DNA of 64,000 bases from Candidatus Parcubacteria bacterium. GTDB taxonomy: Bacteria > Patescibacteriota > Minisyncoccia > Phycocordibacterales > JBAYGS01. Where the stretch lies: NCBI GenBank assembly GCA_039795895.1, contig JBDKKW010000001.1:18837-82836 (forward strand), read 5' to 3'. The notes under the pieces were generated by a model. The model was not told the origin of the DNA. It was given only the letters and a program-made list of their open reading frames with translations, and did no database searches. Made by a program: the position numbers and the translations under genes. Each line of letters begins with the position of its first letter. The stretch's first letter is position 1. Shown piece after piece: positions 1,373-57,899 of this stretch.

Positions 1373-2089
1373 ATGTCATTTGGTTCATATCTAAAAAAAC
1401 AAAGGGAATCGAATAAGTGGACTATCAAAGAGATGGCAGAGCGGCTCGGCTTTTCGTCGAGCTACATCAGCCAGCTGGAAAACGGGACCCGCATTCCGTC
1501 CCAGAAACAGCTCGGCACTTTCGCAAAGGCCTACCAGCTCCCGGAGGAGGATGTCCGGAAGCAGTGGACTGAGGGAAAGATTCAACAGGTCAGCATGGAG
1601 GGCAATTATAAATTTGGCATGACCGATGCTGGTGAGAAGCGTGTACACGAAGCCGCCAGCAAACTCGAAGAAGGACTTGAGGAATTGAAAAAAAGTTTTT
1701 CGAGTGACGGTCATTTCAAAATGCCGGTGCTCGTAGCGATCCCGATTGATGATCTCGACGGTCATCTGACTCGAACGAGCGATTTTGTTTTGCTTCCTAA
1801 AGATGGCGTCATGGAGGATCATCGAGTGTTCGGACTTCGTGTGTCCGATCTCACGCTCCCCGATGCCGGCATTCTTTCCGGAGACTTCGTCATCCTTGAT
1901 GCCGATCTCACTCCAAAGAATGGCGACATCGTGATCATGAGGACACCGGATGGTTTGGTAATGACTTATTACCAAGAGCGAGGCGACCACCTCGAGCTCC
2001 GGCCGGAGAAGGAAGGCTTCAAAAAGACCTACCATCTCAAGGAGAGCAAGATGATCGGTCGGCTGGTGTATCACGTGAAGAAGTATTAA
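1373..2089 (+). CDS. CI/LexA-like repressor: N-terminal XRE HTH plus C-terminal S24 peptidase domain
   Basis: N-term WTIKEMAERLGFSSSYISQLENGTR; C-term ...DGVMEDHRVFGLRVSDLTLPDAGILSGDFVILDADLTPKNGDIVIM..RPEKEGFKK resembles an S24 autopeptidase (assigned from overall C-terminal similarity only; no Ser/Lys catalytic dyad or G-D-S-M motif was positively identified). Confidence 0.8.
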   Translation: MSFGSYLKKQRESNKWTIKEMAERLGFSSSYISQLENGTRIPSQKQLGTFAKAYQLPEEDVRKQWTEGKIQQVSMEGNYKFGMTDAGEKRVHEAASKLEEGLEELKKSFSSDGHFKMPVLVAIPIDDLDGHLTRTSDFVLLPKDGVMEDHRVFGLRVSDLTLPDAGILSGDFVILDADLTPKNGDIVIMRTPDGLVMTYYQERGDHLELRPEKEGFKKTYHLKESKMIGRLVYHVKKY

Positions 2090-2093
2090 CAAA

Positions 2094-2118
2094 CAGGGCT
2101 CCCTTCGGGGAGCCCTGA
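2094..2118 (+). terminator. Hairpin CAGGGCTCCCcttcGGGGAGCCCTG after the CI-like gene
   Basis: Perfect 10-bp stem with a cuucgg-type loop, followed by an AT-rich tract containing three AGTAAA repeats (2163-2205). Confidence 0.5.
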
Positions 2119-2216
2119 GCTCATTTTAAGGCACACCAGTTCAAGGAGTTGTAAAGAATTAGTAAAGAAAAAGTAAATTAATTATTAAAAATAAGTAAAC
2201 AATTTATAAAGGATTT

Positions 2217-3752
2217 ATGAACTACTTAGTCTACGGCCGTGTCTCTACCTCTCGTCAGGCCGAACGAGAACTGAGTATTCCGGCGCAGGTTAAAGCATGT
2301 CAGAAGTACGGCATGGATCACCACTGGAATCTCGCGCCGGATGGCATCTACGAAGAGAAGGGAGAGTCTGCTCGTACCACCGAGCGTCCCCAGCTTCAGA
2401 AAATGCTTCACCGTGCAAAGACCGATCCCAAGGTCGATGCGATCTTGATGCACAAACTGGATCGTATGTGTCGCAACGTCGCGGACTATGCCGCGATTAA
2501 AATGATGCTCAAAAAGCACGATGTCCGATTGATCTCGGTAGTCGAGCAATTCGACGAGTCTTTCTCCGGAGAGCTCGTTGAGAACATCATGTCGTCGATC
2601 GCGCAGTGGACGTCCCAGAACATCAGCTGGGAGGTCAGGAAGGGTCTCAAAGAGGCCGTAGAGCGTGGCCGGTTCCCCGGATACGCACCGCTCGGGTATC
2701 TGAACGATAAGAAGACCAAGTCTCTTATCGTCGACAATATCCGCGCTCCGTACATTAAGTTGGCATTTGAACTCTACGCCACCGGTAAATATTCGTATGA
2801 GTCTTTGTCTGCTGATCTTAATAAGCGAGGTCTGAAGACGCGAAGTGGTAAACAGATCAGTCGAAAAGCTACCGAGCACTTCTTGGCAAACACGATCTAC
2901 TACGGGCTTATAAAAACTCGATCGGCTACCAATCAGGCAAACTTTCCACCTCTCATCACCAAGAAGCTCTTTGACGACGTTCAAGAGATTATCCAACAGC
3001 ACAATCACTACGCCGATCGCACACGCAAACACTCGTATCCAATGGCCGGCTTTATGCGATGTGGCGACTGCGGATCAATGCTCTGCGGCCAGATGCAAAA
3101 GAACCATCTCTACTATTCTTGCAGTCATCGCAAAGACCCGAAGTGCATGGAAAAGAAGTACATGCGCTGGGAGGACGTCGAGGCACAAGTGGCAGTCATG
3201 CTCGCTCGTATACAGTTGCCGGACAAGTTCAAAAAGGTGCTCGATGCCTACTTCCAGTACTTCGCCAAGGAGCGTCTGGATCAGGAGGATAAGGAGCGCA
3301 AAAGTCTGAAACAGGAGCTTATTCGCATCCAGCAACAGATCCGCAATATCGTCGTGGATCGCTCAAAACGCATCATAGACGCAGAGGTCTTTATAAAGAT
3401 TCAGGACGAGCTTTTGCGCGAGAAAGAGATGTATCAGGGTCGCTTGGGTGAGATGGAGGGCAAGTCCGATAAGTTCGTCCAGAAGTTCAACGAGCTATTG
3501 GATTTCACCGATCATGCAGACCGAGTATTTCAGACCGGTGGCTTCCATCAAAAGCGAATAATTATGAAGCTTTGCTTCGAGGGATTCGTCGTCAAAAATC
3601 AAAAACTGACGCCCATCTGGTCGCCAGTCTTTGATGTCCTCATGGACTTACAAGTTTCCAAGATCGAACCTCCTGAGCCCCCTAGGGGGTCAAAAAACGT
3701 TGCAAACACTAAGGTTCAAACTTGGAAATCTGGCGGAGGAAGTGGGATTTGA
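2217..3752 (+). CDS. Large serine recombinase (integrase)
   Basis: N-terminal resolvase catalytic motif YGRVSTSRQ. It is 511 aa and has a Cys cluster CGDCGSMLCG...YYSCSH.. consistent with a zinc ribbon. Its 3' end overlaps the 3' end of tRNA-Ser. Confidence 0.85.
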   Translation: MNYLVYGRVSTSRQAERELSIPAQVKACQKYGMDHHWNLAPDGIYEEKGESARTTERPQLQKMLHRAKTDPKVDAILMHKLDRMCRNVADYAAIKMMLKKHDVRLISVVEQFDESFSGELVENIMSSIAQWTSQNISWEVRKGLKEAVERGRFPGYAPLGYLNDKKTKSLIVDNIRAPYIKLAFELYATGKYSYESLSADLNKRGLKTRSGKQISRKATEHFLANTIYYGLIKTRSATNQANFPPLITKKLFDDVQEIIQQHNHYADRTRKHSYPMAGFMRCGDCGSMLCGQMQKNHLYYSCSHRKDPKCMEKKYMRWEDVEAQVAVMLARIQLPDKFKKVLDAYFQYFAKERLDQEDKERKSLKQELIRIQQQIRNIVVDRSKRIIDAEVFIKIQDELLREKEMYQGRLGEMEGKSDKFVQKFNELLDFTDHADRVFQTGGFHQKRIIMKLCFEGFVVKNQKLTPIWSPVFDVLMDLQVSKIEPPEPPRGSKNVANTKVQTWKSGGGSGI

Positions 3753-3820
3753 ACCCACGAGGAGCTTTCACCCCTGCCGCTTTTCGAGAGCGGTGATTTC
3801 AACCACTCACCCATTCCTCC
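3731..3820 (-). tRNA. tRNA-Ser (anticodon CGA), class II long variable arm, CCA encoded
   Basis: Reverse complement GGAGGAATGGGTGAGTGGTTGAAATCACCGCTCTCGAAAAGCGG...GGGTTCAAATCCCACTTCCTCCGCCA; anticodon loop CTCGAAA. Confidence 0.8.
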
Positions 3821-3855
3821 AAACATTTCATTTAGGCTAGCAAACCATAGCATTT

Positions 3856-3892
3856 TTTTGCAAAATATACAAAAAATGCTATAGTACCTTTT
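3856..3892 (+). promoter_or_regulatory. Sigma-70-type promoter TTGCAA-N17-TATAGT upstream of tRNA-Glu
   Basis: tttttgcaaaatatacaaaaaatgctatagtacc. Confidence 0.5.
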
Positions 3893-3897
3893 CAGAC

Positions 3898-3969
3898 GGC
3901 CCTATCGTCTAACGGTTAGGACACGGCCTTTTCAAGGCTGTAATCGGGGTTCGATTCCCCGTAGGGTCA
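3898..3969 (+). tRNA. tRNA-Glu (anticodon TTC), no CCA encoded
   Basis: GGCCCTATCGTCTAACGGTTAGGACACGGCCTTTTCAAGGCTGTAATCGGGGTTCGATTCCCCGTAGGGTCA; anticodon loop TTTTCAA. Confidence 0.8.
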
Positions 3970-4005
3970 CAGCTTAGAGCACAGCGATAAAAGCTGTGAC
4001 CCTAA
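3961..4005 (+). terminator. Hairpin GGGTCACAGCTT..AAGCTGTGACCC that includes the tRNA-Glu 3' end
   Basis: 12-bp perfect inverted repeat directly abutting the tRNA. No U-tract, so it could instead be an att-associated structure. Confidence 0.4.
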
Positions 4006-4099
4006 GTAGAGCGGGAGCGCTCTACGTCGGGGAATCGAAGCCTGTTTGAGTATTTTTTCAAGTGTAGTAACACGCAGAAAAAATCCAAACAGGGTACTG

Positions 4100-4216
4100 A
4101 CCGTGTAACGGTCGAGTCCCGTAGGGTTACCTCCGTGACCGAGAATGTATGCAAGGTTCCCTGTAGGAAAATTATAGCTGAACCCATTACCATGTCGTTT
4201 TCCGTAGAGTTATCAT
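4100..4216. repeat. Degenerate direct repeats of the tRNA-Glu 3' end (att-site remnants)
   Basis: cggtcgagtcccgtagggttacc (4108-4130), ggttccctgtagg (4154-4166) and ttccgtagagtta (4199-4211) all resemble tRNA-Glu ggggttcgattccccgtagggtca. Confidence 0.5.
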
Positions 4217-4226
4217 TTTACCCACA

Positions 4227-4793
4227 TTGTTTAAAATAAGAGCAAATTTTGTAGGAAGTTTTAAGGTTGGAGATAACATCAATCACAATCTGAGGGTCTT
4301 AACTTTACTGTATAGTTATTTTGAAAATGTGGATAATAATAAAAAGCGGTTACTTTGTAAACCAATCATATTGATAATCATCTCCATTATTGAAGCGGTA
4401 CTGCATGATTTTCACGGACGAATAAGAGCTTACACGAAAGAAGGGGTAAGTACTTTAGCAGAAGATGTAATTAATTATATAAGAGGTAAACATATTGATG
4501 AGTTAGAAAAATACATCATGAGTGCCAAAAAACACGATTTCTTTGATATGAATGATACAAAGTTCTACGATACATTAGATAGTTTTAGAAAATTGAGAAA
4601 CAGAATCCATATTCAAAATACAAAAAACGATTTTGAATCCGATGAATATGTGGCGTTTAATGAAAAACGTAAGGTTGTTGCAGAAAAGCTCCTCGAAAAA
4701 ACCTTAGTGGTGATGAGTGAAAAGTATTCAAGAAATTTTAATGGATATGTACAAGACTTTGAATTGCCATGGGACAAACACTTCCATGATTAG
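4227..4793 (+). CDS. Hypothetical protein in an AT-rich islet, HEPN-like (R-x6-H motif RKLRNRIH); possible Abi/toxin-type protein
   Basis: 188-aa ORF with TTG start. GC is far below the flanks. The HEPN call rests only on the Rx4-6H motif and size. Confidence 0.4.
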   Translation: MFKIRANFVGSFKVGDNINHNLRVLTLLYSYFENVDNNKKRLLCKPIILIIISIIEAVLHDFHGRIRAYTKEGVSTLAEDVINYIRGKHIDELEKYIMSAKKHDFFDMNDTKFYDTLDSFRKLRNRIHIQNTKNDFESDEYVAFNEKRKVVAEKLLEKTLVVMSEKYSRNFNGYVQDFELPWDKHFHD

Positions 4794-4911
4794 GGTGAAC
4801 TATTGTAATTTTGTATTATTTCGTAGTAATTCTGTGTTTATTGGGGCAGAATAGGTTGGTGTGTGTGGTTAGGGAGGTGAATGTGTTAGAATTAGTAGAA
4901 TAGTAATATTC

Positions 4912-5559
4912 TTGAAGTGTATGAATTTTATAAACGATGAATGGACTATAGAAAAGATCAAGGTAGGATTTGAACGTTTTAAGGCTCAAAATGGTAGACT
5001 TCCGACTGGACCAGAAATTGACCAATTAGATTATCTTCCATCAGCTCGACAAATTCAGAGGAAGTTTGGAGGTCTCGAAAAATTACGTTCAGAGCTTGGT
5101 TATGAATATACCCATTTTGGAAAAGGTAAATATAGAAGTGAAATAGCAAGTCGAATAAATGTTAAAGGTCGCCAGGTAGAAATTTCTCTAGAAAAGATTT
5201 TAAAAGAGAAGTTTCATGAAGTTTTTGTTCATACTGAAAAAGTTTTTGATGATTCAAAGAATAGAGTCGATTTTTATGTGTATTGTCCCGATGGAAATTT
5301 TGGTATTGATGTCTTTTATACAGGGACGATGAGGGATTTACAGAAAAATGTAAATATAAAGATTGATAAATATCAGAATTTTACCCACCGATTATATCTA
5401 GTAGTCGCAAATAATGATTTTGAGCAACAAGAACTTAACGGATATATGGTTTCAAAAAAGAAAGCTTTACCGCAAGATAGTACAATTGTGACACTTGATA
5501 CACTTTTTGAAATTATGAAAAATAAAAGAAGTTATCCCGATCCATTTATTACTAAATAG
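4912..5559 (+). CDS. Nuclease-like protein: N-terminal homing-endonuclease-associated (HNH_repeat-like) domain plus C-terminal restriction-endonuclease-like region
   Basis: WTIEKIKVGFERFKAQNGRLPTGPEIDQLDYLPSARQIQRKFGGLEKLRSELGY matches the W..E...GR.PT..E...LPS...I.RKFGG pattern. The C-terminal half reads VDFYVYCPDGNFGIDVFY. AT-rich. Confidence 0.5.
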   Translation: MKCMNFINDEWTIEKIKVGFERFKAQNGRLPTGPEIDQLDYLPSARQIQRKFGGLEKLRSELGYEYTHFGKGKYRSEIASRINVKGRQVEISLEKILKEKFHEVFVHTEKVFDDSKNRVDFYVYCPDGNFGIDVFYTGTMRDLQKNVNIKIDKYQNFTHRLYLVVANNDFEQQELNGYMVSKKKALPQDSTIVTLDTLFEIMKNKRSYPDPFITK

Positions 5560-5702
5560 TTATAAATATCTCTTCAACTTCACAAAAAAGTTAGATGAAA
5601 GTTCTTGTTAATGAATAGAAAAATACTAGTGACCGAAAGCGTACTCTCGATTCCTTGTAAGGTCACAATTAAAAAACCACCGGATTTCTCCGATGGTTGT
5701 GT

Positions 5703-6683
5703 TCAGTTGATTCTATTTATCTTTTCAAGCGCTATGGCCATCTTTCTAAGCGCTTTGTTTTGAATTTGGCGGATTCGTTCGGCGGTGATGCCGAATTGTT
5801 CACCCACCTCTTCCAGTGTCTTGTCGCTGTCTCCATCAAGTCCAAATCTGATGCCTATCAGAGTTCGTTCTCGTGGAGTGAGGGTTTGCAAGAGTCTTTT
5901 GGCAAGCTTAATGTTTTCTCGCCTCTCGCAAACCTTCCGAGGATTTTCTGCATACTCATCCTCTAGTGTGTCCATCCATGTGGCGGTGTCTCCATCTGTG
6001 CCAAGTGGAGCGTCTAGTTCGATTGGCTTTTGGGCTATCGCAAACAAGTTCCTAATCTTCTCCACCGACTCACCGGTCTCCTCGGCTAGCTCTTCTTCGG
6101 TGATACTACGACCGAGGGATGTCTCGAGCTGTTTGATATATTTTCGGTATCGAAGGAATGTCTCAAGTCTATGCGTGGGAATACGAATTGTTCTCCCTTG
6201 TTCTGAGAGCGCCTCCAATATCTTTTGCCTGATCCACCACCTCGCATAGGTTGAAAGCTTTGCGTCGTATCTCCAATCAAACTTCTCGACAGCTTTACAG
6301 AGACCAATATTACCTTCGTTGATGAGGTCAGGTACAGGTACTCCAAGGCCTTCGTGATCGTAGGCTATAGATGCCACCAAGAGTAAGTTGGAGCACACCA
6401 GTGTGTCGCACGCTTGCTTGTCTCCCTTATCTTTCCGTTTACCGAGCTCGATTTCTTCTTCACGAGTAAGTAAGGGGAATGCGCTGATGTCGCGGAAGTA
6501 TCTCCTGAGCTCGTCAGAAGACCGGAGTCTGTTTCCTGAGAGTTCGACGTGTTCGTCGTCAGGTTCTTCGACAGGTGCTTTCGGTGCATTGTGGTTCATT
6601 ACAACCCTTTCGCTTTGAAGCGCAACAAGTAGTTGCGTGACAGTTCTGGTGATAGATACTACTACGGCCAACGGTGTTGTCAA
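5703..6683 (-). CDS. rpoD: RNA polymerase sigma-70 family factor (RpoD/SigA-like); the true start may be the internal ATG at about 6599
   Basis: Regions 2, 3 and 4 are recognisable: RYFRDISAFPLLTREEEIELGKR.., DLINEGNIGLCKAVEKFDWRYDAKLSTYARWWIRQ, ..LTPRERTLIGIRFGLDGDSDKTLEEVGEQFGITAERIRQIQNKALRKM. Confidence 0.9.
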   Translation of the reverse strand: MTTPLAVVVSITRTVTQLLVALQSERVVMNHNAPKAPVEEPDDEHVELSGNRLRSSDELRRYFRDISAFPLLTREEEIELGKRKDKGDKQACDTLVCSNLLLVASIAYDHEGLGVPVPDLINEGNIGLCKAVEKFDWRYDAKLSTYARWWIRQKILEALSEQGRTIRIPTHRLETFLRYRKYIKQLETSLGRSITEEELAEETGESVEKIRNLFAIAQKPIELDAPLGTDGDTATWMDTLEDEYAENPRKVCERRENIKLAKRLLQTLTPRERTLIGIRFGLDGDSDKTLEEVGEQFGITAERIRQIQNKALRKMAIALEKINRIN

Positions 6684-7582: not shown

Positions 7583-7996
7583 CTATGCGGTATGTTTCTT
7601 TTTTAAATCAGCGAACATCGAGGCGGCGAGGGCTATGATGACAATATTTTTGATCATATATTGGCCTTCAAGTGTCGGAGTGAGAAAGCCTTGCCAAGCG
7701 ATATCTGGAAGGAGAAAAAGAGGCATGATGGTGGTGATCATGTGTGGGATGAGCAGGATCATTGCCACTTTTTCCATCTTCGGAATGATAAATAGGACAC
7801 CAATCAAGACTTCCCAGGCGCCAAGAATGCGGATAAAAGTGTGGAATGAAATGAAGGGTAGGGTTTGCTTCAAGAGTGCGTCTACGAGGGGATTGGCAGG
7901 ACTTAAGTCAAAGAATTTGAGTGCGCCAAACCAGACGAAGACCACAAAGAGAGCGAAGTGGGCGAAGAGGAATGCGATGTATTCTTTTTTCTTCAT
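7583..7996 (-). CDS. DoxX-like integral membrane protein
   Basis: 137 aa with four hydrophobic helices; its composition resembles the DoxX/YkgB family. Confidence 0.5.
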   Translation of the reverse strand: MKKKEYIAFLFAHFALFVVFVWFGALKFFDLSPANPLVDALLKQTLPFISFHTFIRILGAWEVLIGVLFIIPKMEKVAMILLIPHMITTIMPLFLLPDIAWQGFLTPTLEGQYMIKNIVIIALAASMFADLKKKHTA

Positions 7997-19655: not shown

Positions 19656-19955
19656 TTCAAAATTGAAACCCCACGATACCCTTCTTAGGTGTATCGTGGG
19701 GTTTTCCTTTATCGATAACGAACGAGAATCCTTTTGGTGTATGTTGCGGAGTTGAGCCAGCAGGGTCAGTCAAGAGATGTGTCTGCACATTATCTTGACT
19801 GTGGCGAGACGAGTGAGAAAGTGCGGGGCACTTTCGCAAGACTCATTGAGATTCTTTCTTTAAAAATCCAATGAGTGGACAGTTCCTGTAAGGAATAGGA
19901 AAAGCCGGCGCTGGCCGGCTTTATCCGCGTACACCAAAAGTGATGGAGTGAGTCT

Positions 19956-33421: not shown

Positions 33422-33651
33422 ATATATGTTCTCTATCGAATAAATCCGAAAGAGTGTTGAAAAATATAGCAAAATTTTAATGATTTAGCAATATGGGGTA
33501 CTTGAGGTGGGATATCTTTCTCTATGAGAACAGTATCCCAATTGGATATTTTATTTCGCAAAGCTCTTAAAATATCTCAATCGGGCTTCGATTTCCACCT
33601 CGAAAGCGTAACACGCTTTCTTCGAGCACAAAGCTCACTTCGTTCGTTTTG

Positions 33652-36897: not shown

Positions 36898-38094
36898 ATG
36901 TCAAGAAAGGCTCAAACAACCAAGCGAATCTATCTCGACTATGCATCGACCACTCCGGTGGATACGCGTGTGGTGCGAGCGATGAAGCGATACCAGTCGC
37001 AAGATTTTGGTAATCCGAGTTCGATTCACGCGGAGGGGGTGGTAGCAAAGAAGGTGCTTATGGATGCGCGGAAAAAAGTGGCCACACTTTTTTCCGCGCA
37101 TCCAGACGAGGTTATTTTCACTTCCGGAGGGACCGAAGCAAACAATCTCGCTATTTTAGGGACACTTTATGAGCTTGAGAAAAAAGGTGTATCGATTTCA
37201 AAGATGCACGCGATTACTTCAGTGGTTGAACATAGTTCAATCCTTGAATGTTTTAAACAGCTTCAGTCTCGAGGGATGTGGGTGGATTTTGCTCTGGTGA
37301 CCGAAAAAGGGATTGTTGATCTGAAAGCTTTCAAAAAATTGCTACGCCCTGAGACGGTGCTGGTGTCAGTGCAGTATGTAAATAATGAAATCGGAACTAT
37401 TCAGCCAATACGAGAGATTGCCAAATTGCTACGTCATCAGCAAAAGATGAAGGGTAAGAAAATACTTTTGCATACCGACGCTAGTCAGGCTGGGCAGTAT
37501 CTAGATATGAATACACAAGTGCTAGGAGTCGATTTACTAACGATTGATGCCCACAAAATGTATGGACCAAAAGGGGTAGGAGCTTTGTTTGTAAAAAGGG
37601 GGGTTGCATTAGCTCCACTTTTGTTTGGAGGGAAGCAGGAAGGAGGACTTCGATCTACTACTGAAAATGTTGCTGGTGTTGTCGGACTCTCTGAGGCTTT
37701 TGCACTTTCGGTGGCACTCCGAGATGCGGAGACGAAGCGTCTTTCGGCACTACGAGATTATTTTTTCAAATCGGTTCAAAAAATGGTGCCGAGAATTTGT
37801 ATTAATGGCGATCTGGATCTACGCCTCCCAAATAATATCAATATCTCAATTCCGGGACTTGATGCTGAGTATGCAGTACTCCAGTTTGATGCAGAGGGGG
37901 TTGCTGTATCGACCAAGAGTTCATGTCTTACTAATGAGAGTTTATCGTATGTTGTCTTTGCATTAGGCGGGGACAAGGAACGAGCCTCGACCTCACTTCG
38001 ATTTGCTTTTGGACGTGACACGACGAAAGAAAAGATTGATCAGGTGCTTTTAATTTTGAAAAAGATTCTTACGGGGCAAAAAATCATTACGTAG
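36898..38094 (+). CDS. iscS: Cysteine desulfurase (IscS/NifS class, PLP-dependent)
   Basis: YLDYASTTPVD..., PLP-lysine region TIDAHKMYGPKGVGALFVK, ..SSCLT. Confidence 0.85.
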   Translation: MSRKAQTTKRIYLDYASTTPVDTRVVRAMKRYQSQDFGNPSSIHAEGVVAKKVLMDARKKVATLFSAHPDEVIFTSGGTEANNLAILGTLYELEKKGVSISKMHAITSVVEHSSILECFKQLQSRGMWVDFALVTEKGIVDLKAFKKLLRPETVLVSVQYVNNEIGTIQPIREIAKLLRHQQKMKGKKILLHTDASQAGQYLDMNTQVLGVDLLTIDAHKMYGPKGVGALFVKRGVALAPLLFGGKQEGGLRSTTENVAGVVGLSEAFALSVALRDAETKRLSALRDYFFKSVQKMVPRICINGDLDLRLPNNINISIPGLDAEYAVLQFDAEGVAVSTKSSCLTNESLSYVVFALGGDKERASTSLRFAFGRDTTKEKIDQVLLILKKILTGQKIIT

Positions 38095-44404: not shown

Positions 44405-44986
44405 TTACTTCAGGAAGCCGAGCATACCACCAATTTCCTGGAGGAGGTCGATGGGTCCACCAAAGATCCGTCGGTCAGTTTGGAGTTGATCCATAAAGAC
44501 TTCGCGCGGAGCGGCGTAGATGACGATGTCGTTGTGGAGGACAATGCTGTAGAGTGAATCCCAGCCGACCGTCGTGGTCACCTTCTTGTTCATATAAATA
44601 CGATCACTTGTGACGGTCAGATCCTTGTAGGGGATTTGGTAAAGTGTGTAGCTATTGAACTCAGGTAGGCGTTTGTCGAATCCGACATTGCCGTCGATGG
44701 CGTTACGAAACACATCGGGACCAAAGAGCTCACGAAAAGCAGGCACGCCAGTAAATTTCTGGACGTTGCGACTTTTGAGGTCAAATCCGGCCCATTCGAG
44801 GTCTGTCAGAGTGGTCTTGCCACGCACGATACCTTCGAATTTTTCTTTCAGGACCTGTCGGTCGTTCGAGAACATTCCCGTCTTGTTGCGATCCAGCTTG
44901 GTACGTTTACGGGCTGATTCACAGCCAGTACCAAGGGTGAGAATGAAGAGACTGCACAGTGCTACTGCCACAATACGTGATTTCAT
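44405..44986 (-). CDS. Putative lipoprotein (193 aa)
   Basis: Signal peptide ending LTLGTGC, a lipobox-like sequence. Confidence 0.5.
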   Translation of the reverse strand: MKSRIVAVALCSLFILTLGTGCESARKRTKLDRNKTGMFSNDRQVLKEKFEGIVRGKTTLTDLEWAGFDLKSRNVQKFTGVPAFRELFGPDVFRNAIDGNVGFDKRLPEFNSYTLYQIPYKDLTVTSDRIYMNKKVTTTVGWDSLYSIVLHNDIVIYAAPREVFMDQLQTDRRIFGGPIDLLQEIGGMLGFLK

Positions 44987-53992: not shown

Positions 53993-56167
53993 CTATTTTG
54001 TTTTCTCTAGCTTGTGTGGGTTATGATTTGCACAAGCCTTATTACTACATCTCTCAGGAATCGTCTTCGTGCCATCCATCATGAGTGACTGACACATTGG
54101 GCAGATGTTGCCGGTAGGGCGAGCTTTGATTGCGTTTTTACACTTTGGATAATTTGAGCAACTGTAGAATGCACCAAAGCGTCCGCGTCGCTCGGTCATC
54201 ATGCCGTCTTTGCAGGTCGGACACTGTACGCCGGTCGAGTTTTGTCGCTCGAGCTCAGCGTCTTTTTTAATAAACTTACATTTTGGGTAGTTGTTGCAAG
54301 AAATAAATCGGCCAAATTTACCATCTCGCTCCACCAGCTTGCCGTCTTTACACTCAGGACACGCTTCGCCAGTCTCTTTTGGTCCGGCTAGTTCGATGCC
54401 GTCGATAGTGCGTGCACCCAGACAATCAGGAAAATCTTTGCACGACAGGAATTTGCCGGTCTTGCCGAGCTTGATGAGCATTCCTTTACCACACTTCGGA
54501 CACACATATTTTGCATCCGCCTCACCCATATCTGTAATCTTGGCAGTCTTCTCGCGAGACTTCACCTCTTTCAAAAATGGTTTGTAGAAATCGCCGAGCG
54601 TTTTTTCGTAGGTACGGTCGCCATTGGCAATATCATCGAGCTTGTCTTCCATCTCGGCGGTAAAAGTATCGCTGACATAATCTTTGAAATTGTCTTCAAT
54701 AAAAGTACTGACCACGTCTCCCGTGTCAGTCGGGCAGAGAGCTTTATTTATTTTACTCACATACCCACGCTCTTCGAGTGTCTTGATGATAGATGCGTAG
54801 GTCGACGGTCGGCCGATACCGCGCTTTTCGAGCTCTTTGACGAGGCCTGCTTCAGAATATCTTGGTGGCGGTTCGGTAGCTTTTTCTTCGGTGTGAATAT
54901 CGAGGAAAGTTAATTTTTCTCCGACGGTGACTTTTGGAAGCTCGACATCTTCGCCTCGAGCATCAGGGTCGGCGAGAAGCCAGCCAGGGGAGAGAGTACG
55001 TGAGCCGTTAGCAGAGAAATGAGGGATGGTCGCATCACTGCCGACAGCCACTTCGATTTTACTTCGCAAGATTTTTGCATCAGCCATCTGTGAGGCTATG
55101 GTGCGTTGCCAGATCAGCGTGTAGAGTGCTTGCTGTTCGGGAGTGCTTCCGGCTTCGTCGTGAGCCATATGGGTCGGACGGATTGCCTCGTGCGCTTCCT
55201 GTGCATTTTTACTTTTCTTGGTGAACGTGCGAGGACTGACCAGTTCTTTTCCGTATTTCTTTTCGATGGTTGCAAGGATTTGACCGACAGCCACCGTACT
55301 GAGGTTGGTACTATCAGTACGCATATAGGTGATAAGGCCGGCTTCGTAGAGCTTCTGGGCGACGCCCATGGTGCGAGAGGGAGCAAAGCCGAGGCGAGTA
55401 CTGGCGGTCTGCTGGAGGGTCGAGGTGATGAACGGCGCTTTTGGTGAGCGCTTAGCTTCGGTCTCCGTGACATCTATCACCACCCACGAATCTTTTTTGC
55501 CGGCAGTGACGATTTTGTCTACTAGATTTTTGTCTCGAGGCTCTTCGACACAAGTCAAAAGCAATGCAACATTTTTTGCTGTCTTGGTGTCGGCGGTAAT
55601 GACCCAGAATTTCTCGGAGATAAACGCGCGGATTTCTCGCTCGCGTTCCATAATGATACGGAGCGCGGGGGACTGCACGCGACCAGCCGAAAGACCGTAG
55701 CGTACTTTTTTCCAAATCAAACCAGAGAGGTCGTAGCCTACCAAACGGTCGAGCACACGTCGGGCTTCTTGAGCTTTGCGGAGATTTTGATCAATGTCTC
55801 GGGGGTGTTTGATGGCTTCGATGACAGCGTCTTTGGTAATTTCATAAAAGACTACTCGGCGAGGTTTTTTGAGGCCGGTAGCTTCGGCGATGTGCCACGA
55901 GATGGCTTCACCTTCTCGGTCGGGGTCTGTCGCAAGGAGGATTTCGTCTGCTTTTTTGGCGAGGGATTTGATTTCTGCCACTACTGATTCTTTGCCTTTT
56001 GAGATTTCGTAGGTCGGTACGAAGCCCGCATCAATATCGATTGCCTTTTTATTACTCTTTGGTAAATCACGAATGTGACCGACCGACGCCACCACTTTGT
56101 ATGCGCCATCCAAATATTTTGAAATAGTTTTTGCTTTCGCCGGCGACTCAACGATCAATAATTTCAT
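53993..56167 (-). CDS. topA: DNA topoisomerase I with C-terminal zinc-ribbon repeats
   Basis: Toprim N-terminus MKLLIVESPAKAKTISKYL; active-site region; C-terminal CPKCGKG..C..C and CPECKDGKL.. CxxC ribbons. Start trimmed to MKLL. Confidence 0.95.
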   Translation of the reverse strand: MKLLIVESPAKAKTISKYLDGAYKVVASVGHIRDLPKSNKKAIDIDAGFVPTYEISKGKESVVAEIKSLAKKADEILLATDPDREGEAISWHIAEATGLKKPRRVVFYEITKDAVIEAIKHPRDIDQNLRKAQEARRVLDRLVGYDLSGLIWKKVRYGLSAGRVQSPALRIIMEREREIRAFISEKFWVITADTKTAKNVALLLTCVEEPRDKNLVDKIVTAGKKDSWVVIDVTETEAKRSPKAPFITSTLQQTASTRLGFAPSRTMGVAQKLYEAGLITYMRTDSTNLSTVAVGQILATIEKKYGKELVSPRTFTKKSKNAQEAHEAIRPTHMAHDEAGSTPEQQALYTLIWQRTIASQMADAKILRSKIEVAVGSDATIPHFSANGSRTLSPGWLLADPDARGEDVELPKVTVGEKLTFLDIHTEEKATEPPPRYSEAGLVKELEKRGIGRPSTYASIIKTLEERGYVSKINKALCPTDTGDVVSTFIEDNFKDYVSDTFTAEMEDKLDDIANGDRTYEKTLGDFYKPFLKEVKSREKTAKITDMGEADAKYVCPKCGKGMLIKLGKTGKFLSCKDFPDCLGARTIDGIELAGPKETGEACPECKDGKLVERDGKFGRFISCNNYPKCKFIKKDAELERQNSTGVQCPTCKDGMMTERRGRFGAFYSCSNYPKCKNAIKARPTGNICPMCQSLMMDGTKTIPERCSNKACANHNPHKLEKTK

Positions 56168-56257
56168 GTGGGTAGTATTGCACGATATGTGAATGATTGG
56201 CAAATCTTAGGTAGTTGGTATACTTAATCTATATTGTTGTAAATAATAAAATTCTCT

Positions 56258-56440
56258 ATGTTTAATATTATAGGTTTAGTGATTGTGGGTTATTTTTTGT
56301 ATGGATTTCACAAAGACGACACATTAAAAGAATTTGAGAATAAAAAATTAAAAGATTTGACGATTAATGATATAGGCTCAATTCTTTGGCTAGTATTTCT
56401 GATACTGATTCTTGGTAGACTTTTACAAAATCTATTTTAA
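56258..56440 (+). CDS. Small two-TM membrane protein (60 aa) in an AT-rich islet
   Basis: MFNIIGLVIVGYFLYGF...ILWLVFLILILGRLL. About 30% GC. Confidence 0.35.
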   Translation: MFNIIGLVIVGYFLYGFHKDDTLKEFENKKLKDLTINDIGSILWLVFLILILGRLLQNLF

Positions 56441-56451
56441 TCTAAATAGTA

Positions 56452-56480
56452 ACAGCGGTTCGCAAGAACAGTTCTCGCGA
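56452..56480. promoter_or_regulatory. Palindrome TTCGCAAGAACAGTTCTCGCGAA (GAAC-N1-GTTC core)
   Basis: A similar palindrome GCAAGAACCGTTCTTGC sits at 56963-56979, on the other side of ORF 56506..56958. Confidence 0.5.
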
Positions 56481-56505
56481 AGATTTTCCTAGCTTCAGAA
56501 ATTTT

Positions 56506-56958
56506 ATGACCAAGAATAAGACAAAAGAAAATGAAGAAATGCTCAAGGCATTAGCTGATTATGGCAAAATCTCACAAGAAGCGTGGTCAATTCAAAAAGA
56601 TAAGAGTTTGACTCAACTAGATGTCATTAAATTGAGGTTTGAAAATAGGATCAATACCCTCGATTATCTTCTAGATTTTTTTAAAAACTTGTTGACCATT
56701 GTACTCACTGGACTCATCGGTTCCTTTGCTGTCACTAATAGTGTAGAAATAATAGAACTCCGTTTTTATCTTTGTTGGCTGGGCGCGGTGTTGCTTGTTA
56801 CGGTGTATCTGTTATTTTTGAGAAGAAAGTCTACTGTTCAATTGATGCTTTCTATGATTGAAAGCTCGTTTGAGAATATTCAATTTTTACATGATGGGCG
56901 CCTAAGTGAGATAGAGAGTAGAAAAAAAATCTTCACCGATACAATTCTTGGTAAATAA
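56506..56958 (+). CDS. Hypothetical membrane protein (150 aa) in an AT-rich islet between topA and dprA
   Basis: Central TM helices. AT-rich. Flanked by the related palindromes. Confidence 0.45.
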   Translation: MTKNKTKENEEMLKALADYGKISQEAWSIQKDKSLTQLDVIKLRFENRINTLDYLLDFFKNLLTIVLTGLIGSFAVTNSVEIIELRFYLCWLGAVLLVTVYLLFLRRKSTVQLMLSMIESSFENIQFLHDGRLSEIESRKKIFTDTILGK

Positions 56959-57023
56959 TGATTAGCAAGAACCGTTCTTGCTAAGGGTTTAGAAATTATA
57001 ATTTAGGAATTAGATGTTTTCTT

Positions 57024-57899
57024 TTACATTAGCCTGATTTCCCCCTCGCTTTCCTTAATCATCCCTTTAATCTCCATCATTGAAAGAAGAATGCTGACTT
57101 TTTGGGTGGGAAAGCCGGAGGCACGGACGAGGGAGTCGCGGGTGCATGGAGTGGCGAGCAGGCACAGGAGAGTAAGCTCGTCTTCATTTGCGTCGGCGTA
57201 CTGTTTTTCAAAGGGGAGTGTGCTTTGGCCTTCAAGACCAAGAGCGATCAGTAAATCTTCGACCGAGGCGATAGGAGTGGCACCAAGTTTCAAAAGCAAA
57301 TGCGGGCCGGTGGAATTTTGGGAGTAGATTGAGCCAGGCACGGTGAGTACATCGCGATTGTAATCGGTAGCGAGGCGAGCAGTGATCAGTGTGCCGGATT
57401 TTTGTTCCGCTTCAATAATCAGCACGGCTTTTGAAAGTCCTGCCATAATGCGATTGCGTTGCGGAAAGCTGTAAGGGGTCGCTTTGAACGTCGGATCAAA
57501 TTCTGAAAGCAAGCATCCACCCGCTTCAACAATTTCTTTTGCTAGATTTTTGTGCGAAGCAGGGTAGAGGGCACTTGGGTCGAGTCCTGATCCGGGCACG
57601 GCGATGGTTTTGAGATTATTTGCGAGGGCTGACCGATGGGCGATAGCGTCGATACCGAGCGCGAGGCCAGAGACGATCACTACCGGCTTGCCTCGCAGTC
57701 CCGCAATGAGCATTTCGCAGACTTCTTTTCCATACGGACTGTATTTTCTGGCACCGACCACGCAGAGGTGTATCGAATCTTCAGGGGGAAGCTCGCCAAC
57801 AATAAAAAGCTGTTCGGGAGGCTTAGGAATTTCCAAAATCGGTTTTGGAAATTTATTTTTGGGGAGCGAAATGATGCGTTTGTCTTTTGAGAACGACAT
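57024..57899 (-). CDS. dprA: DNA processing protein DprA (Smf)
   Basis: Rossmann-like DprA core ..VVGARKYSPYGKEVCEMLIAGL..VSGLALGIDAIAHRSAL..TIAVPGSGLD.. Confidence 0.85.
   Translation of the reverse strand: MSFSKDKRIISLPKNKFPKPILEIPKPPEQLFIVGELPPEDSIHLCVVGARKYSPYGKEVCEMLIAGLRGKPVVIVSGLALGIDAIAHRSALANNLKTIAVPGSGLDPSALYPASHKNLAKEIVEAGGCLLSEFDPTFKATPYSFPQRNRIMAGLSKAVLIIEAEQKSGTLITARLATDYNRDVLTVPGSIYSQNSTGPHLLLKLGATPIASVEDLLIALGLEGQSTLPFEKQYADANEDELTLLCLLATPCTRDSLVRASGFPTQKVSILLSMMEIKGMIKESEGEIRLM

Follow-up and report, generated by a model that had tools for sequence, protein, structure and literature searches.

The stretch of DNA analysed here is 64 kb in length (the window) and has a tRNA-Glu gene followed by a short AT-rich islet with two open reading frames. 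A convergent sigma-70 gene is present on the far side of the islet. The features of the locus are as follows.

2217–3752, + strand: large serine recombinase gene (Pfam Resolvase, Recombinase and Zn_ribbon_recom)
3731–3820, − strand: tRNA-Ser(cga)
3898–3970, + strand: tRNA-Glu (UUC; ttc), found by ARAGORN and by the Rfam tRNA model at 61.7 bits
3975–4137, + strand: structured module that trails the tRNA, termed the R module (repeats, homologous modules and covariation)
4135–4173, + strand: copy B, the bracketing repeat on the left, in which the tRNA-Glu 3' half is degenerate (repeat search and alignment)
4227–4793, + strand: ORF1, HEPN-fold stand-alone protein of 188 aa (fold and conserved residues)
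4921–5559, + strand: ORF2, 212 aa, an HNH_repeat-like module with a PD-(D/E)xK-fold domain (fold and conserved residues)
5629–5667, + strand: right bracketing repeat, copy D (shuffle test and repeat search)
5675–5698, − strand: intrinsic-terminator-like hairpin of the sigma-70 gene (terminator scan)
5703–6683, − strand: sigma-70 gene (rpoD), convergent to the islet (Pfam Sigma70 r1_2, r2, r3 and r4)

The AT-rich segment after tRNA-Glu was pointed out in the initial annotation and is real. The GC content is 0.29–0.35 across positions ~4200–5650, compared with 0.46 for the window and approximately 0.49 for the flanks, and this is the most AT-rich stretch within the 64 kb. The serine recombinase gene abuts tRNA-Ser, its last 22 nt overlapping the tRNA 3' end, and two tRNAs lie between it and the islet. 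It is part of a separate neighbouring element outside the islet. On the other side, the rpoD terminator hairpin is directly against copy D and marks the native flank. The host genome has no close relative in the databases; the next-best sigma-70 sequences are only 47–51% identical.

A hairpin that includes the 3' end of tRNA-Glu is present as previously described, but it is formed by a perfect inverted repeat of 14 bp rather than 12 bp (positions 3962–3975 and 3991–4004). It lies innermost in a longer inverted repetition of the tRNA 3' half (3942–3961/4028–4047), which is interrupted by an 8-bp hairpin at positions 4006–4025. The R module comprises, in order, the tRNA 3' end in inverted form (3991–4004 and 4028–4042), split by this small hairpin, then a long hairpin (4041–4093) and a short one (GACCGTGTAACGGTC), and finally copy A (4112–4130), in which the tRNA 3' end recurs in direct orientation. 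The 153-nt fold has a z value of −8.3. Homologues of the module are found at loci L115, L001 and L031, and also after tRNA-Leu(taa) in the window. A comparison of four sequences shows that 17 of 33 base pairs change on both sides and that 90% of the cells are paired, which is matched by none of 500 shuffles. The module has no match to an Rfam family. Analogous modules, made of inverted and direct copies of the tRNA's own 3' end, follow five of the nine tRNAs in the window. Neither the hairpin nor copy A is specific to this hotspot; both belong to a structured module that is conserved in this lineage, where it is found after several tRNAs. Because the module is common after many tRNAs, copy A and the hairpin alone do not show integration.

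The sequence repeated downstream is the 3' half of tRNA-Glu. Three direct copies had been listed in the initial annotation. The first, copy A, is significant, with an equal or higher score in 0.4% of shuffles. The second (positions 4154–4166) is at the level of chance when taken alone (P = 0.18) and stands only as part of a direct repeat of 31–39 nt, 4135–4173 versus 5629–5667. The third (positions 4199–4211) is indistinguishable from chance. The list missed copy D at the far end, which is decisive. Its core, TCGATTCCTTGTAAGGTCACA at positions 5647–5667, has 18 of 21 bases and a score of 27 that is matched in 0.2% of shuffles, and none of 500 shuffles reach the scores of copy A and the copy D core jointly. 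Of the displaced tRNA-Glu 3' halves, copy D is the best preserved, and it marks the right boundary of the insertion, immediately next to the rpoD terminator. Copy B has the form TGACCG...TTCCCTGTAGG and is 71% identical to positions 5629–5659 in the repeat search. The composite repeat motif is found at positions 4098, 4136 and 5630, with one short match at 44611. Copies B and D bracket the islet, and ORF1 and ORF2 are the only genes between them; there is no integrase gene.

An alternative is that there was no insertion, i.e., that ORF1 and ORF2 are old resident genes of unusual composition and the repeats are the normal tRNA-trailing modules of the lineage. The inverted and direct copies that follow five window tRNAs without an islet fit this, as do the missing integrase and the lack of database relatives that could display an empty site. 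However, copy D is 1.7 kb from tRNA-Glu, well outside the range of the usual module (+115 to +190 nt), and copies B and D pair exactly around the AT-rich DNA. Homologues of both genes elsewhere are scattered, AT-rich and cassette-like. In addition, the island at L115, which consists of an HTH gene, a homologue of ORF2 (77% identity, the closest found) and a 306-aa gene, lies between tRNA-Glu and the homologue of window positions 3966–4135. It is in an unrelated genomic context and at a different position relative to the R module than the window islet. Since the two islands sit at different points of the same arrangement, the window and L115 can serve as reciprocal empty sites. A history with no insertion is thus very unlikely.

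The segment at ~4135–5667 is probably an integrase-less AT-rich islet of about 1.5 kb at a tRNA-Glu hotspot, with two functionally independent single-gene modules. That the insertion is linked to tRNA-Glu, as first proposed, is borne out by the tRNA-derived bracketing repeats, the odd GC content and the presence of ORF2 homologues after tRNA-Glu in two other contigs. At L055 the 3' end of tRNA-Glu is followed first by its direct copy and next by an ORF2 homologue. The islet sits after the R module, which normally trails the tRNA, and before the rpoD terminator, with the mode and order of the insertions inferred. The islet resembles known tRNA-linked genomic islands in its position 3' of a tRNA, the direct repeats of the tRNA 3' end, the anomalous GC content and the defence- or toxin-type cargo. 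It differs in its small size, the lack of an integrase, the degenerate state of the bracketing repeats (only ~71% identical) and an insertion point that is distal to the structured module and not at the tRNA end itself.

ORF1 is intact and starts at TTG 4227. It is an all-alpha, up-down helical bundle with the HEPN fold, and it has the motif R121-x6-H128 (RKLRNRIH), in which R121 is present in at least 90% of the sequences and H128 is invariant. The description of ORF1 as HEPN-like with an R-x6-H motif is thus upheld by both the fold and the conserved residues. Invariant residues are R124, N125, R126, H128, I129 and Q130; the spacing R124–H128 is only R-x3-H, and an Rx4-6H motif is provided by R121. 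There is also an invariant N-terminal patch, G15-D16-N17-I18..N21. Sequence similarity of ORF1 to solved HEPN proteins is undetectable, nothing convincing is found in NCBIfam or PHROGs, and the Pfam matches reported for ORF1 or the family consensus include no HEPN-clan family. Likewise, for 58 family members (E ≤ 0.1), no HEPN-clan family is among the 25 most frequent of the 36 families matched; these 25 include two weak matches to MtlR (E 0.021), which is counted as an inactive HEPN relative. The more specific label of a Swt1/Abi-type protein does not hold, as no Swt1, Abi or other HEPN Pfam match is listed and PADLOC finds no family for ORF1 or ORF2. The ORF1 family similarly has no listed Pfam or PADLOC match that would join it to the Abi HEPN proteins, e.g., lactococcal AbiV (9bj5) or the HEPN domain of AbiA (8oz7). 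Identity to HEPN-MNT toxins (8xdj, 5yep, 7ae2) and to YutE/DUF86 is 7–11%. Unlike in HEPN-MNT modules, there is no MNT (nucleotidyltransferase) antitoxin gene beside ORF1 or its homologues, and the RKLRNRIH motif differs from that of DUF86-type proteins, RNxxxHxY.

Homologues of ORF1 are found in many phyla, including on rhizobial plasmids, and the closest (L113) has 77% identity. Clustering of neighbours at 50 loci reveals no shared family that could represent a partner gene, and no small ORF is conserved downstream. The genes upstream are heterogeneous and include AbiH, Mrr, GmrSD, HNH and ResIII genes among others, so that some homologues have defence genes as neighbours. At L022 the homologue begins 35 nt after a tRNA-Glu. 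At L027 it makes up one cassette of an array with five attC-like repeats of 94 nt, which end in GTT-type cores, an arrangement comparable to that of streamlined defence genes in integron gene cassettes (bioRxiv 10.1101/2024.07.02.601686). The window differs from integron cassettes in that it has no attC array or integron integrase and its repeats are tRNA-derived. A precedent for solo HEPN defence is HepS ('HEPN Solo'), an abortive-infection protein of the Salmonella Gifsy-1 prophage (PMC13043305). Like HepS, ORF1 is a single small HEPN protein with an Rx4-6H motif and no conserved partner, carried on mobile DNA; unlike HepS, it is ~190 aa and has the additional invariant N-terminal patch (GDNINHN). 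ORF1 is most likely a putative metal-independent RNase that would act on its own as an abortive-infection or toxin-type effector, similar to HepS and other solo HEPN proteins. Its fold and context are what suggest the RNase activity and a role in defence or addiction.

ORF2 is also intact, and ATG 4921 is a more likely start than TTG 4912. It has an N-terminal helical module (residues ~8–60) that resembles HNH_repeat and a C-terminal region with the alpha-beta-beta-beta-alpha-beta core fold of restriction endonucleases, which confirms the restriction-endonuclease-like region that had been proposed. Residues E87, H104, E106, K113, R115, D117, D130, K147, Y151 and Q169 are invariant. D117 is at the start of strand 2, D130 in strand 3 and K147 in the helix that follows. 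Strand 3 has the sequence GIDVF and does not provide the lysine of an xK motif. A canonical (D/E)xK triad is not pinpointed, and the catalytic lysine may be supplied from elsewhere.

A homing-endonuclease-associated repeat had also been assigned to ORF2. The N-terminal resemblance is consistent, and PF18780 is the most frequent Pfam match across the family, with 16 of 53 members matched at E values of 5e-4 to 0.1. However, the family consensus scores 17.2–20.5 bits, which is under the gathering cutoff of 26 bits, and ORF2 of the window itself has no match at E ≤ 1. Residues ~15–58 align to positions 11–53 of the 54-position model; ORF2 differs from HNH_repeat proteins in that the repeat is present once and is followed by a PD-(D/E)xK domain and not by an HNH domain. 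No sequence-level match to PDB chains is found. Compared with PD-(D/E)xK nucleases (Upx 9wuf, CdiA-CT 4g6v, type II REases, Hjc and XisH 2okf), ORF2 has a non-canonical position of the catalytic lysine and no methyltransferase partner, which was not found for its homologues either, and it is 212 aa in length as opposed to 1212 aa in Upx. On the basis of fold and context, ORF2 is a small putative DNA nuclease, in which a helical DNA-binding module, kin to the homing-endonuclease-associated repeat, would be joined to a PD-(D/E)xK catalytic domain; DNase activity and a role in defence or addiction are suggested.

ORF1 and ORF2 lie next to each other in the same orientation, 127 bp apart, have a similar GC content (~0.30–0.34) and share one pair of bracketing repeats. 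This arrangement agrees with the original proposal of a two-gene toxin or defence cargo, in which an RNase (ORF1) and a DNase (ORF2) were delivered as a unit. Comparative data largely refute it. The two genes do not occur together within about 8 kb at any of the 53 loci with ORF1 homologues or the 59 loci with ORF2 homologues, and with none of 112 loci carrying both, the idea of a two-gene system fails. Each family has its own, different neighbours, and those of the two closest homologues (L113 and L115) are entirely different. The ORF1 family is spread over many phyla, whereas the ORF2 family is mostly in Patescibacteria, and there is no PADLOC match. A single system is therefore highly improbable. 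ORF1 and ORF2 travel separately as single-gene modules, and their adjacency in the islet is proposed to arise because the site is a hotspot. The locus is a real tRNA-linked insertion hotspot with a fairly ordinary islet and not a two-gene defence system.

ORF2 homologues are highly conserved, with identities of 50–79%, and their contexts are variable. The GC content of the homologue is below that of its flanks by more than 0.05 at 27 of 36 loci, and homologues of both ORF1 and ORF2 are AT-richer than the flanks in most host genomes. A gene for a Xer-like tyrosine recombinase precedes the ORF2 homologue at 18 loci. At four loci (L095, L096, L098 and L102) the 3' end of the upstream recombinase gene, comprising its last 24–38 codons, is directly duplicated, and the two copies enclose only the ORF2 homologue; these recombinases are of two lineages that are only 31% identical. 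The ORF2 family behaves as a small insertion cassette.

These duplications, together with the high conservation in variable contexts, a GC content below that of the flanks, the N-terminal resemblance to the homing-endonuclease-associated repeat, the lack of a methyltransferase partner and the presence of ORF2 homologues at tRNA-Glu in three contigs (the window and two others), are in keeping with a selfish homing-type endonuclease gene that drives its own insertion beside conserved genes (tRNA-Glu and xer) at their 3' ends, with ORF1 as an unrelated passenger or a separate cassette. Classical homing does not make target duplications, however, and the duplications are equally compatible with site-specific or Campbell-type integration. 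PF18780 remains below threshold, and the gap between ORF1 and ORF2 in the window has no detectable tRNA fragment, so that ORF2 lacks bracketing repeats of its own. The closest ORF2 relatives have a gene for an Xre-type HTH protein (HTH_3) 4–6 nt upstream, as in toxin or controlled-REase modules. A homing-type element is thus considered unlikely.

No HTH gene or remnant of one is detectable upstream of ORF2 in the window, where the copy would have lost, or never had, this gene. The islet might then be a decaying remnant with ORF2 an orphaned toxin or controlled nuclease and neither gene in a current role, to which the missing integrase and the degenerate bracketing repeats could also be attributed. 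This is quite unlikely in that both ORFs are full length and keep all invariant residues of their families, and the HTH gene is missing from many other ORF2 loci.

Two independent single-gene modules at a tRNA-Glu hotspot remain the preferred reading, and the position of the R module gives rise to one further proposal. With its inverted and direct copies of the tRNA 3' end and its three covarying hairpins, the ~160-nt module could be an undescribed structured element that serves small integrase-less cassettes of Patescibacteria as a landing pad or junction, with the ORF2 family as the agent of insertion. This is improbable. If true, the ORF2 family would place such cassettes at tRNA-Glu and xer genes, in each case at the 3' end, and the R module and ORF2 would represent a new kind of site-specific mobile cassette. 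In L115 and L031 a homologue of the module lies at the distal edge of an island bearing an ORF1 or ORF2 homologue, and in L001 one lies at what seems to be the edge of a mobile-looking region.

The tRNA-Glu locus is a genuine insertion hotspot, occupied by an integrase-less islet of 1.5 kb with two independent cargo genes, ORF1 and ORF2. What the genes do enzymatically and biologically, and how the islet was inserted, are predictions throughout. The tRNA and cargo genes are:

3731–3820, minus strand, tRNA-Ser(cga), called by ARAGORN and Rfam
3898–3970, plus strand, tRNA-Glu(ttc), called by ARAGORN and Rfam
4227–4793, ORF1, 188 aa, HEPN-fold protein with an R-x6-H motif
4921 (ATG)–5559, ORF2, 212 aa, putative nuclease

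The AT-rich segment proposed in the initial annotation is confirmed. The GC content is 0.29–0.35 across positions ~4200–5650, compared with 0.46 for the window and ~0.49 for either flank, and this is the most extreme AT-rich segment within the 64 kb. The hairpin noted downstream of tRNA-Glu is also real, but it is larger than first described. A 14-bp perfect inverted repeat (3962–3975 and 3991–4004) forms the inner portion of an inverted copy of the entire tRNA-Glu 3' half, whose outer arms are at 3942–3961 and 4028–4047; a hairpin with an 8-bp stem (4006–4025) splits the inverted copy. The fold of tRNA-Glu plus trailer is far better than that of shuffled sequences (z = -8.3).

Candidate direct copies of the tRNA-Glu 3' part were scored against composition-matched shuffles. 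Of the three copies initially proposed, the one at 4112–4130 is significant, with an equal or higher score in 0.4% of shuffles, but 4154–4166 taken singly is not (P = 0.18), and 4199–4211 was rejected, as it cannot be told apart from chance. The best copy had been overlooked. Situated at the islet's far end (5647–5667, TCGATTCCTTGTAAGGTCACA), it matches in 18 of 21 bases and has a score attained in 0.2% of shuffles. With its upstream extension (5629–5667) it forms an imperfect direct repeat of 31–39 nt with positions 4135–4173. A composite motif, TGACCG-N4-16-TCC-N-GTAGG, is found on the plus strand at 4098, 4136 and 5630; a short match at 44611 looks like a chance occurrence. The far copy directly abuts a terminator-like hairpin (5675–5698) of a convergent sigma-70 gene. 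In the simplest reading, this copy would be the former tRNA-Glu 3' half, displaced and still against its native flank, and the DNA between the two bracketing repeats would be inserted. Elsewhere in the window, a T-arm-like fragment at 37011–37037, TAATCCGAGTTCGATTCACGCGGAGGG, matches the tRNA-Glu 3' probe as well as the real copies do; no tRNA is called there by ARAGORN or Rfam.

Comparison of the islet DNA with all fetched loci shows recurrence at tRNA-Glu. Locus L115, which has the closest ORF2 homologue, displays in order tRNA-Glu (7593–7667), a helix-turn-helix (HTH) gene, the ORF2 homologue, a gene for 306 aa and a homologue of window positions 3966–4135. The island in L115 is thus between tRNA-Glu and the trailing module, whereas in the window it is beyond that module, and therefore each locus displays the uninterrupted site of the other. 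L055 begins with a tRNA-Glu 3' end, followed by a direct copy at 170–191 (20 of 22 bases), a terminator, an HTH remnant and the ORF2 homologue; in L022, 35 nt separate tRNA-Glu from the start of an ORF1 homologue. The tRNA-derived bracketing repeats, the AT-rich DNA and this recurrence bear out the tRNA-linked hotspot initially proposed. By itself, the islet is an ordinary tRNA-linked islet.

A search for orthologous loci by way of the RpoD-like sigma-70 gene (5703–6683, minus strand) found no near relative of the host among 5.8 billion proteins. The next-best homologues are only 47–51% identical, and with no relative above ~51% a true orthologous comparison is impossible. This divergence reflects either a poorly sampled host lineage or an unusual sigma factor. 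Several of the few named best matches are from Verrucomicrobiota.

The two genes had been interpreted as a joint RNase and DNase toxin or defence cargo. The locus sets consisted of 50 genomic loci for ORF1 and 57 metagenomic loci for ORF2, with others added by exact-protein look-up. Homologues of both genes do not occur together in any fetched locus, and the two-gene model is therefore unsupported. The pairing of ORF1 and ORF2 is accidental and the cargo genes are independent; genes side by side at an integration hotspot are no evidence of a system.

ORF1 has no significant match among Pfam, NCBIfam, PHROGs and PADLOC profiles. A Pfam scan of all family members and of the family consensus rescued nothing among the matches listed, and a profile search of PDB sequences yielded no relatives. 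Homologues are nevertheless plentiful, with 216 in a 90%-identity protein collection and 552 clusters among 50%-identity representatives; the best 150 of these clusters are mostly stand-alone proteins of ~190 aa. Residues R124, N125, R126, H128, I129 and Q130 are invariant in the alignment, R121 is nearly invariant, and there is a further invariant patch, G15-D16-N17-I18..N21. The initial HEPN assignment stands as to fold and R-x6-H motif, but in view of the lack of profile matches it does not extend to any named HEPN family. ORF1 defines a widespread stand-alone HEPN family outside all the profile libraries and found in many phyla, in places beside known defence and restriction genes. It is a new, unprofiled solo-HEPN family, probably of RNase effectors, and a plausible new defence or toxin candidate.

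Hosts of ORF1 homologues include Planctomycetota, Pseudomonadota, Omnitrophota, Verrucomicrobiota, Bacteroidota, Patescibacteria and others. The homologues are AT-richer than their flanks (mean difference 0.10). No conserved partner was found upstream, where the genes are heterogeneous and include those for AbiH, Mrr, GmrSD, HNH, ResIII and DndB, or downstream, where small ORFs are unrelated and mostly spurious. In L027, from a Verrucomicrobiae MAG, a repeat of 94 nt that contains an internal dyad symmetry is present five times between 4817 and 9129 at spacings of 461–2305 bp, and one copy ends in GTTAGGC. This array looks like integron attC sites, with the ORF1 homologue as one 661-bp cassette. 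A 54-bp direct repeat flanks the homologue in L024. Rhizobial plasmids also carry homologues. On the Agrobacterium plasmid pAt7 (NZ_CP048582.1, 16.9 kb; locus L117, 5–1124) the homologue, 53% identical, overlaps the end of a small gene annotated as a recombinase family protein by 14 nt and has genes for a HigA antitoxin and a relaxase as neighbours. A Patescibacteria (UBA661) MAG (L031, 1–4083) and a Saccharibacteria MAG (L032, 4330–8412) share a block of 4.1 kb or more at 99.3% identity; the ORF1 homologue is at its right end, and the block stops 165 nt past the gene. This points to recent horizontal transfer. The cassette array, the plasmids, the AT-richness, the lack of a partner and the shared block together argue that, as judged from genomic context, the ORF1 family is an autonomous, horizontally mobile single-gene function. 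The closest functional precedent, HepS, is an anticodon nuclease of the solo HEPN kind, and a phage tail protein is its trigger (PMC13043305). ORF1 homologues are absent from the phage collection, and IMG/VR gives a single distant match. The 323-aa gene adjoining the closest ORF1 homologue (L113) was considered as a sigma-70 gene and rejected.

ORF2 has 283 homologues, chiefly from Patescibacteria, and defines a small nuclease family centred on that group. No significant match was found in Pfam, NCBIfam, PHROGs or PADLOC, and a profile search of PDB sequences revealed no relatives of the family. At the N-terminus, the homing-endonuclease-associated repeat initially proposed appears as a PF18780 signal in 16 of 53 family members (best E 5e-4). 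The consensus of the family covers nearly the whole model; yet the signal is sub-threshold (17–20 bits for the consensus against a 26-bit cutoff), and the window protein itself gives no match. The invariance of E87, E106, D117, D130 and K147 points to an active enzyme; the (D/E)xK lysine is missing from its canonical position. The family is a small PD-(D/E)xK nuclease, of predicted activity, whose DNA-binding module is related to homing endonucleases.

In 18 loci a gene for a Xer-like tyrosine recombinase (~320 aa) is 1–31 nt upstream of the ORF2 homologue (86 nt in one). In four loci the ORF2 gene alone is flanked by the last 24–38 codons of the recombinase gene in direct duplicate; the recombinases of these loci include a lineage just 31% identical to the rest. 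The duplicated stretches are:

L095, 524–596 and 1296–1369, duplicated recombinase 3' end
L096, 826–904 and 1599–1677, duplicated recombinase 3' end
L102, 3088–3166 and 3862–3940, duplicated recombinase 3' end
L098, 925–951 and 1802–1828, duplicated recombinase 3' end

The downstream duplicate is decaying and contains stop codons. With this flanking duplication, the ORF2 gene looks like a single-gene cassette put in at the recombinase 3' end. The closest relatives (67–78% identity) have, instead of the recombinase, an Xre-type HTH gene of 67–76 aa at 4–6 nt upstream. The window copy is without an HTH gene, and neither an HTH remnant nor a tRNA fragment was detected in the spacer between ORF1 and ORF2 (4794–4920). 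Downstream, only variable genes are present (SocA/Panacea, PDDEXK_1 and unknowns). ORF2 homologues are absent from the phage and plasmid collections, with a single distant match in IMG/VR. The family behaves like a one-gene cassette inserting at tRNA-Glu and xer 3' ends.

The analysis may have its most original lead in the structured segment trailing tRNA-Glu, termed here the R module. Homologues were sought by nhmmer and covariance-model searches:

Window 3975–4137, after tRNA-Glu
Window 33490–33632, minus strand, after tRNA-Leu(taa)
L115 9750–9922, after the island, at its distal edge
L001 8386–8530, at what seems the boundary of a region that looks mobile
L031 4134–4251, a tRNA-Ser-like version starting ~50 nt past the end of the block shared with L032

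The region in L001 carries genes for a serine recombinase and AAA_25 besides an ORF1 homologue. Four helices are common to four copies, including the Glu and Leu(taa) versions, in which the shared structure spans ~145 nt. Both sides change in 17 of 33 pairs and 90% of cells pair; this covariation was matched by none of 500 shuffles, and slid controls were 31–54% paired. Several of the G-U pairs favour the tRNA strand, and the module has no match in Rfam. A weak covariance-model match is present at window positions 19838–19896 (E 8e-4).

Five of the nine window tRNAs are trailed by their own 3' end, as an inverted copy at approximately +40–70 nt and a direct copy at approximately +115–190 nt. 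Besides Glu and Leu(taa), these are:

33066, tRNA-Leu(tag)
43062, tRNA-Tyr
48289, tRNA-Leu(caa)

Among 38 distinct tRNAs from all loci, strong inverted copies are downstream of eight and upstream of none. These trailing copies and their downstream bias show that the hairpin and first direct copy at tRNA-Glu are part of a lineage-wide feature; trailing inverted and direct copies also occur in some other Patescibacteria. The initial view of the repeats as a scar of integrations is compatible with the position of the R module at distal island edges (L115, L031 and probably L001). Possible identities of the R module are an att-type junction, a miniature element and a co-transcribed trailer RNA. 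It could bear on the gain and loss of cargo at tRNA genes in tiny-genome CPR bacteria.

Two other regions of the window have the following genes:

1373–2089, CI/LexA-like repressor (HTH_3 and Peptidase_S24)
2217–3752, large serine recombinase, 511 aa, with the last 22 nt overlapping the tRNA-Ser 3' end on the opposite strand
53993–56203, minus strand, topA
57024–57899, minus strand, presumed dprA (by eye), 291 aa

A prophage-like element integrated in tRNA-Ser and reaching past the window start probably has its right end in positions 1373–3752. Serine recombinases distantly related to the 2217–3752 product (~30% identity) are present in L001 and L032 within ~8 kb of the ORF1 homologues. A second islet of sharply AT-rich DNA (56204–57023, minimum GC 0.295), flanked by topA and the presumed dprA, has no adjacent tRNA and holds an ORF of 150 aa with hydrophobic segments (56506–56958).
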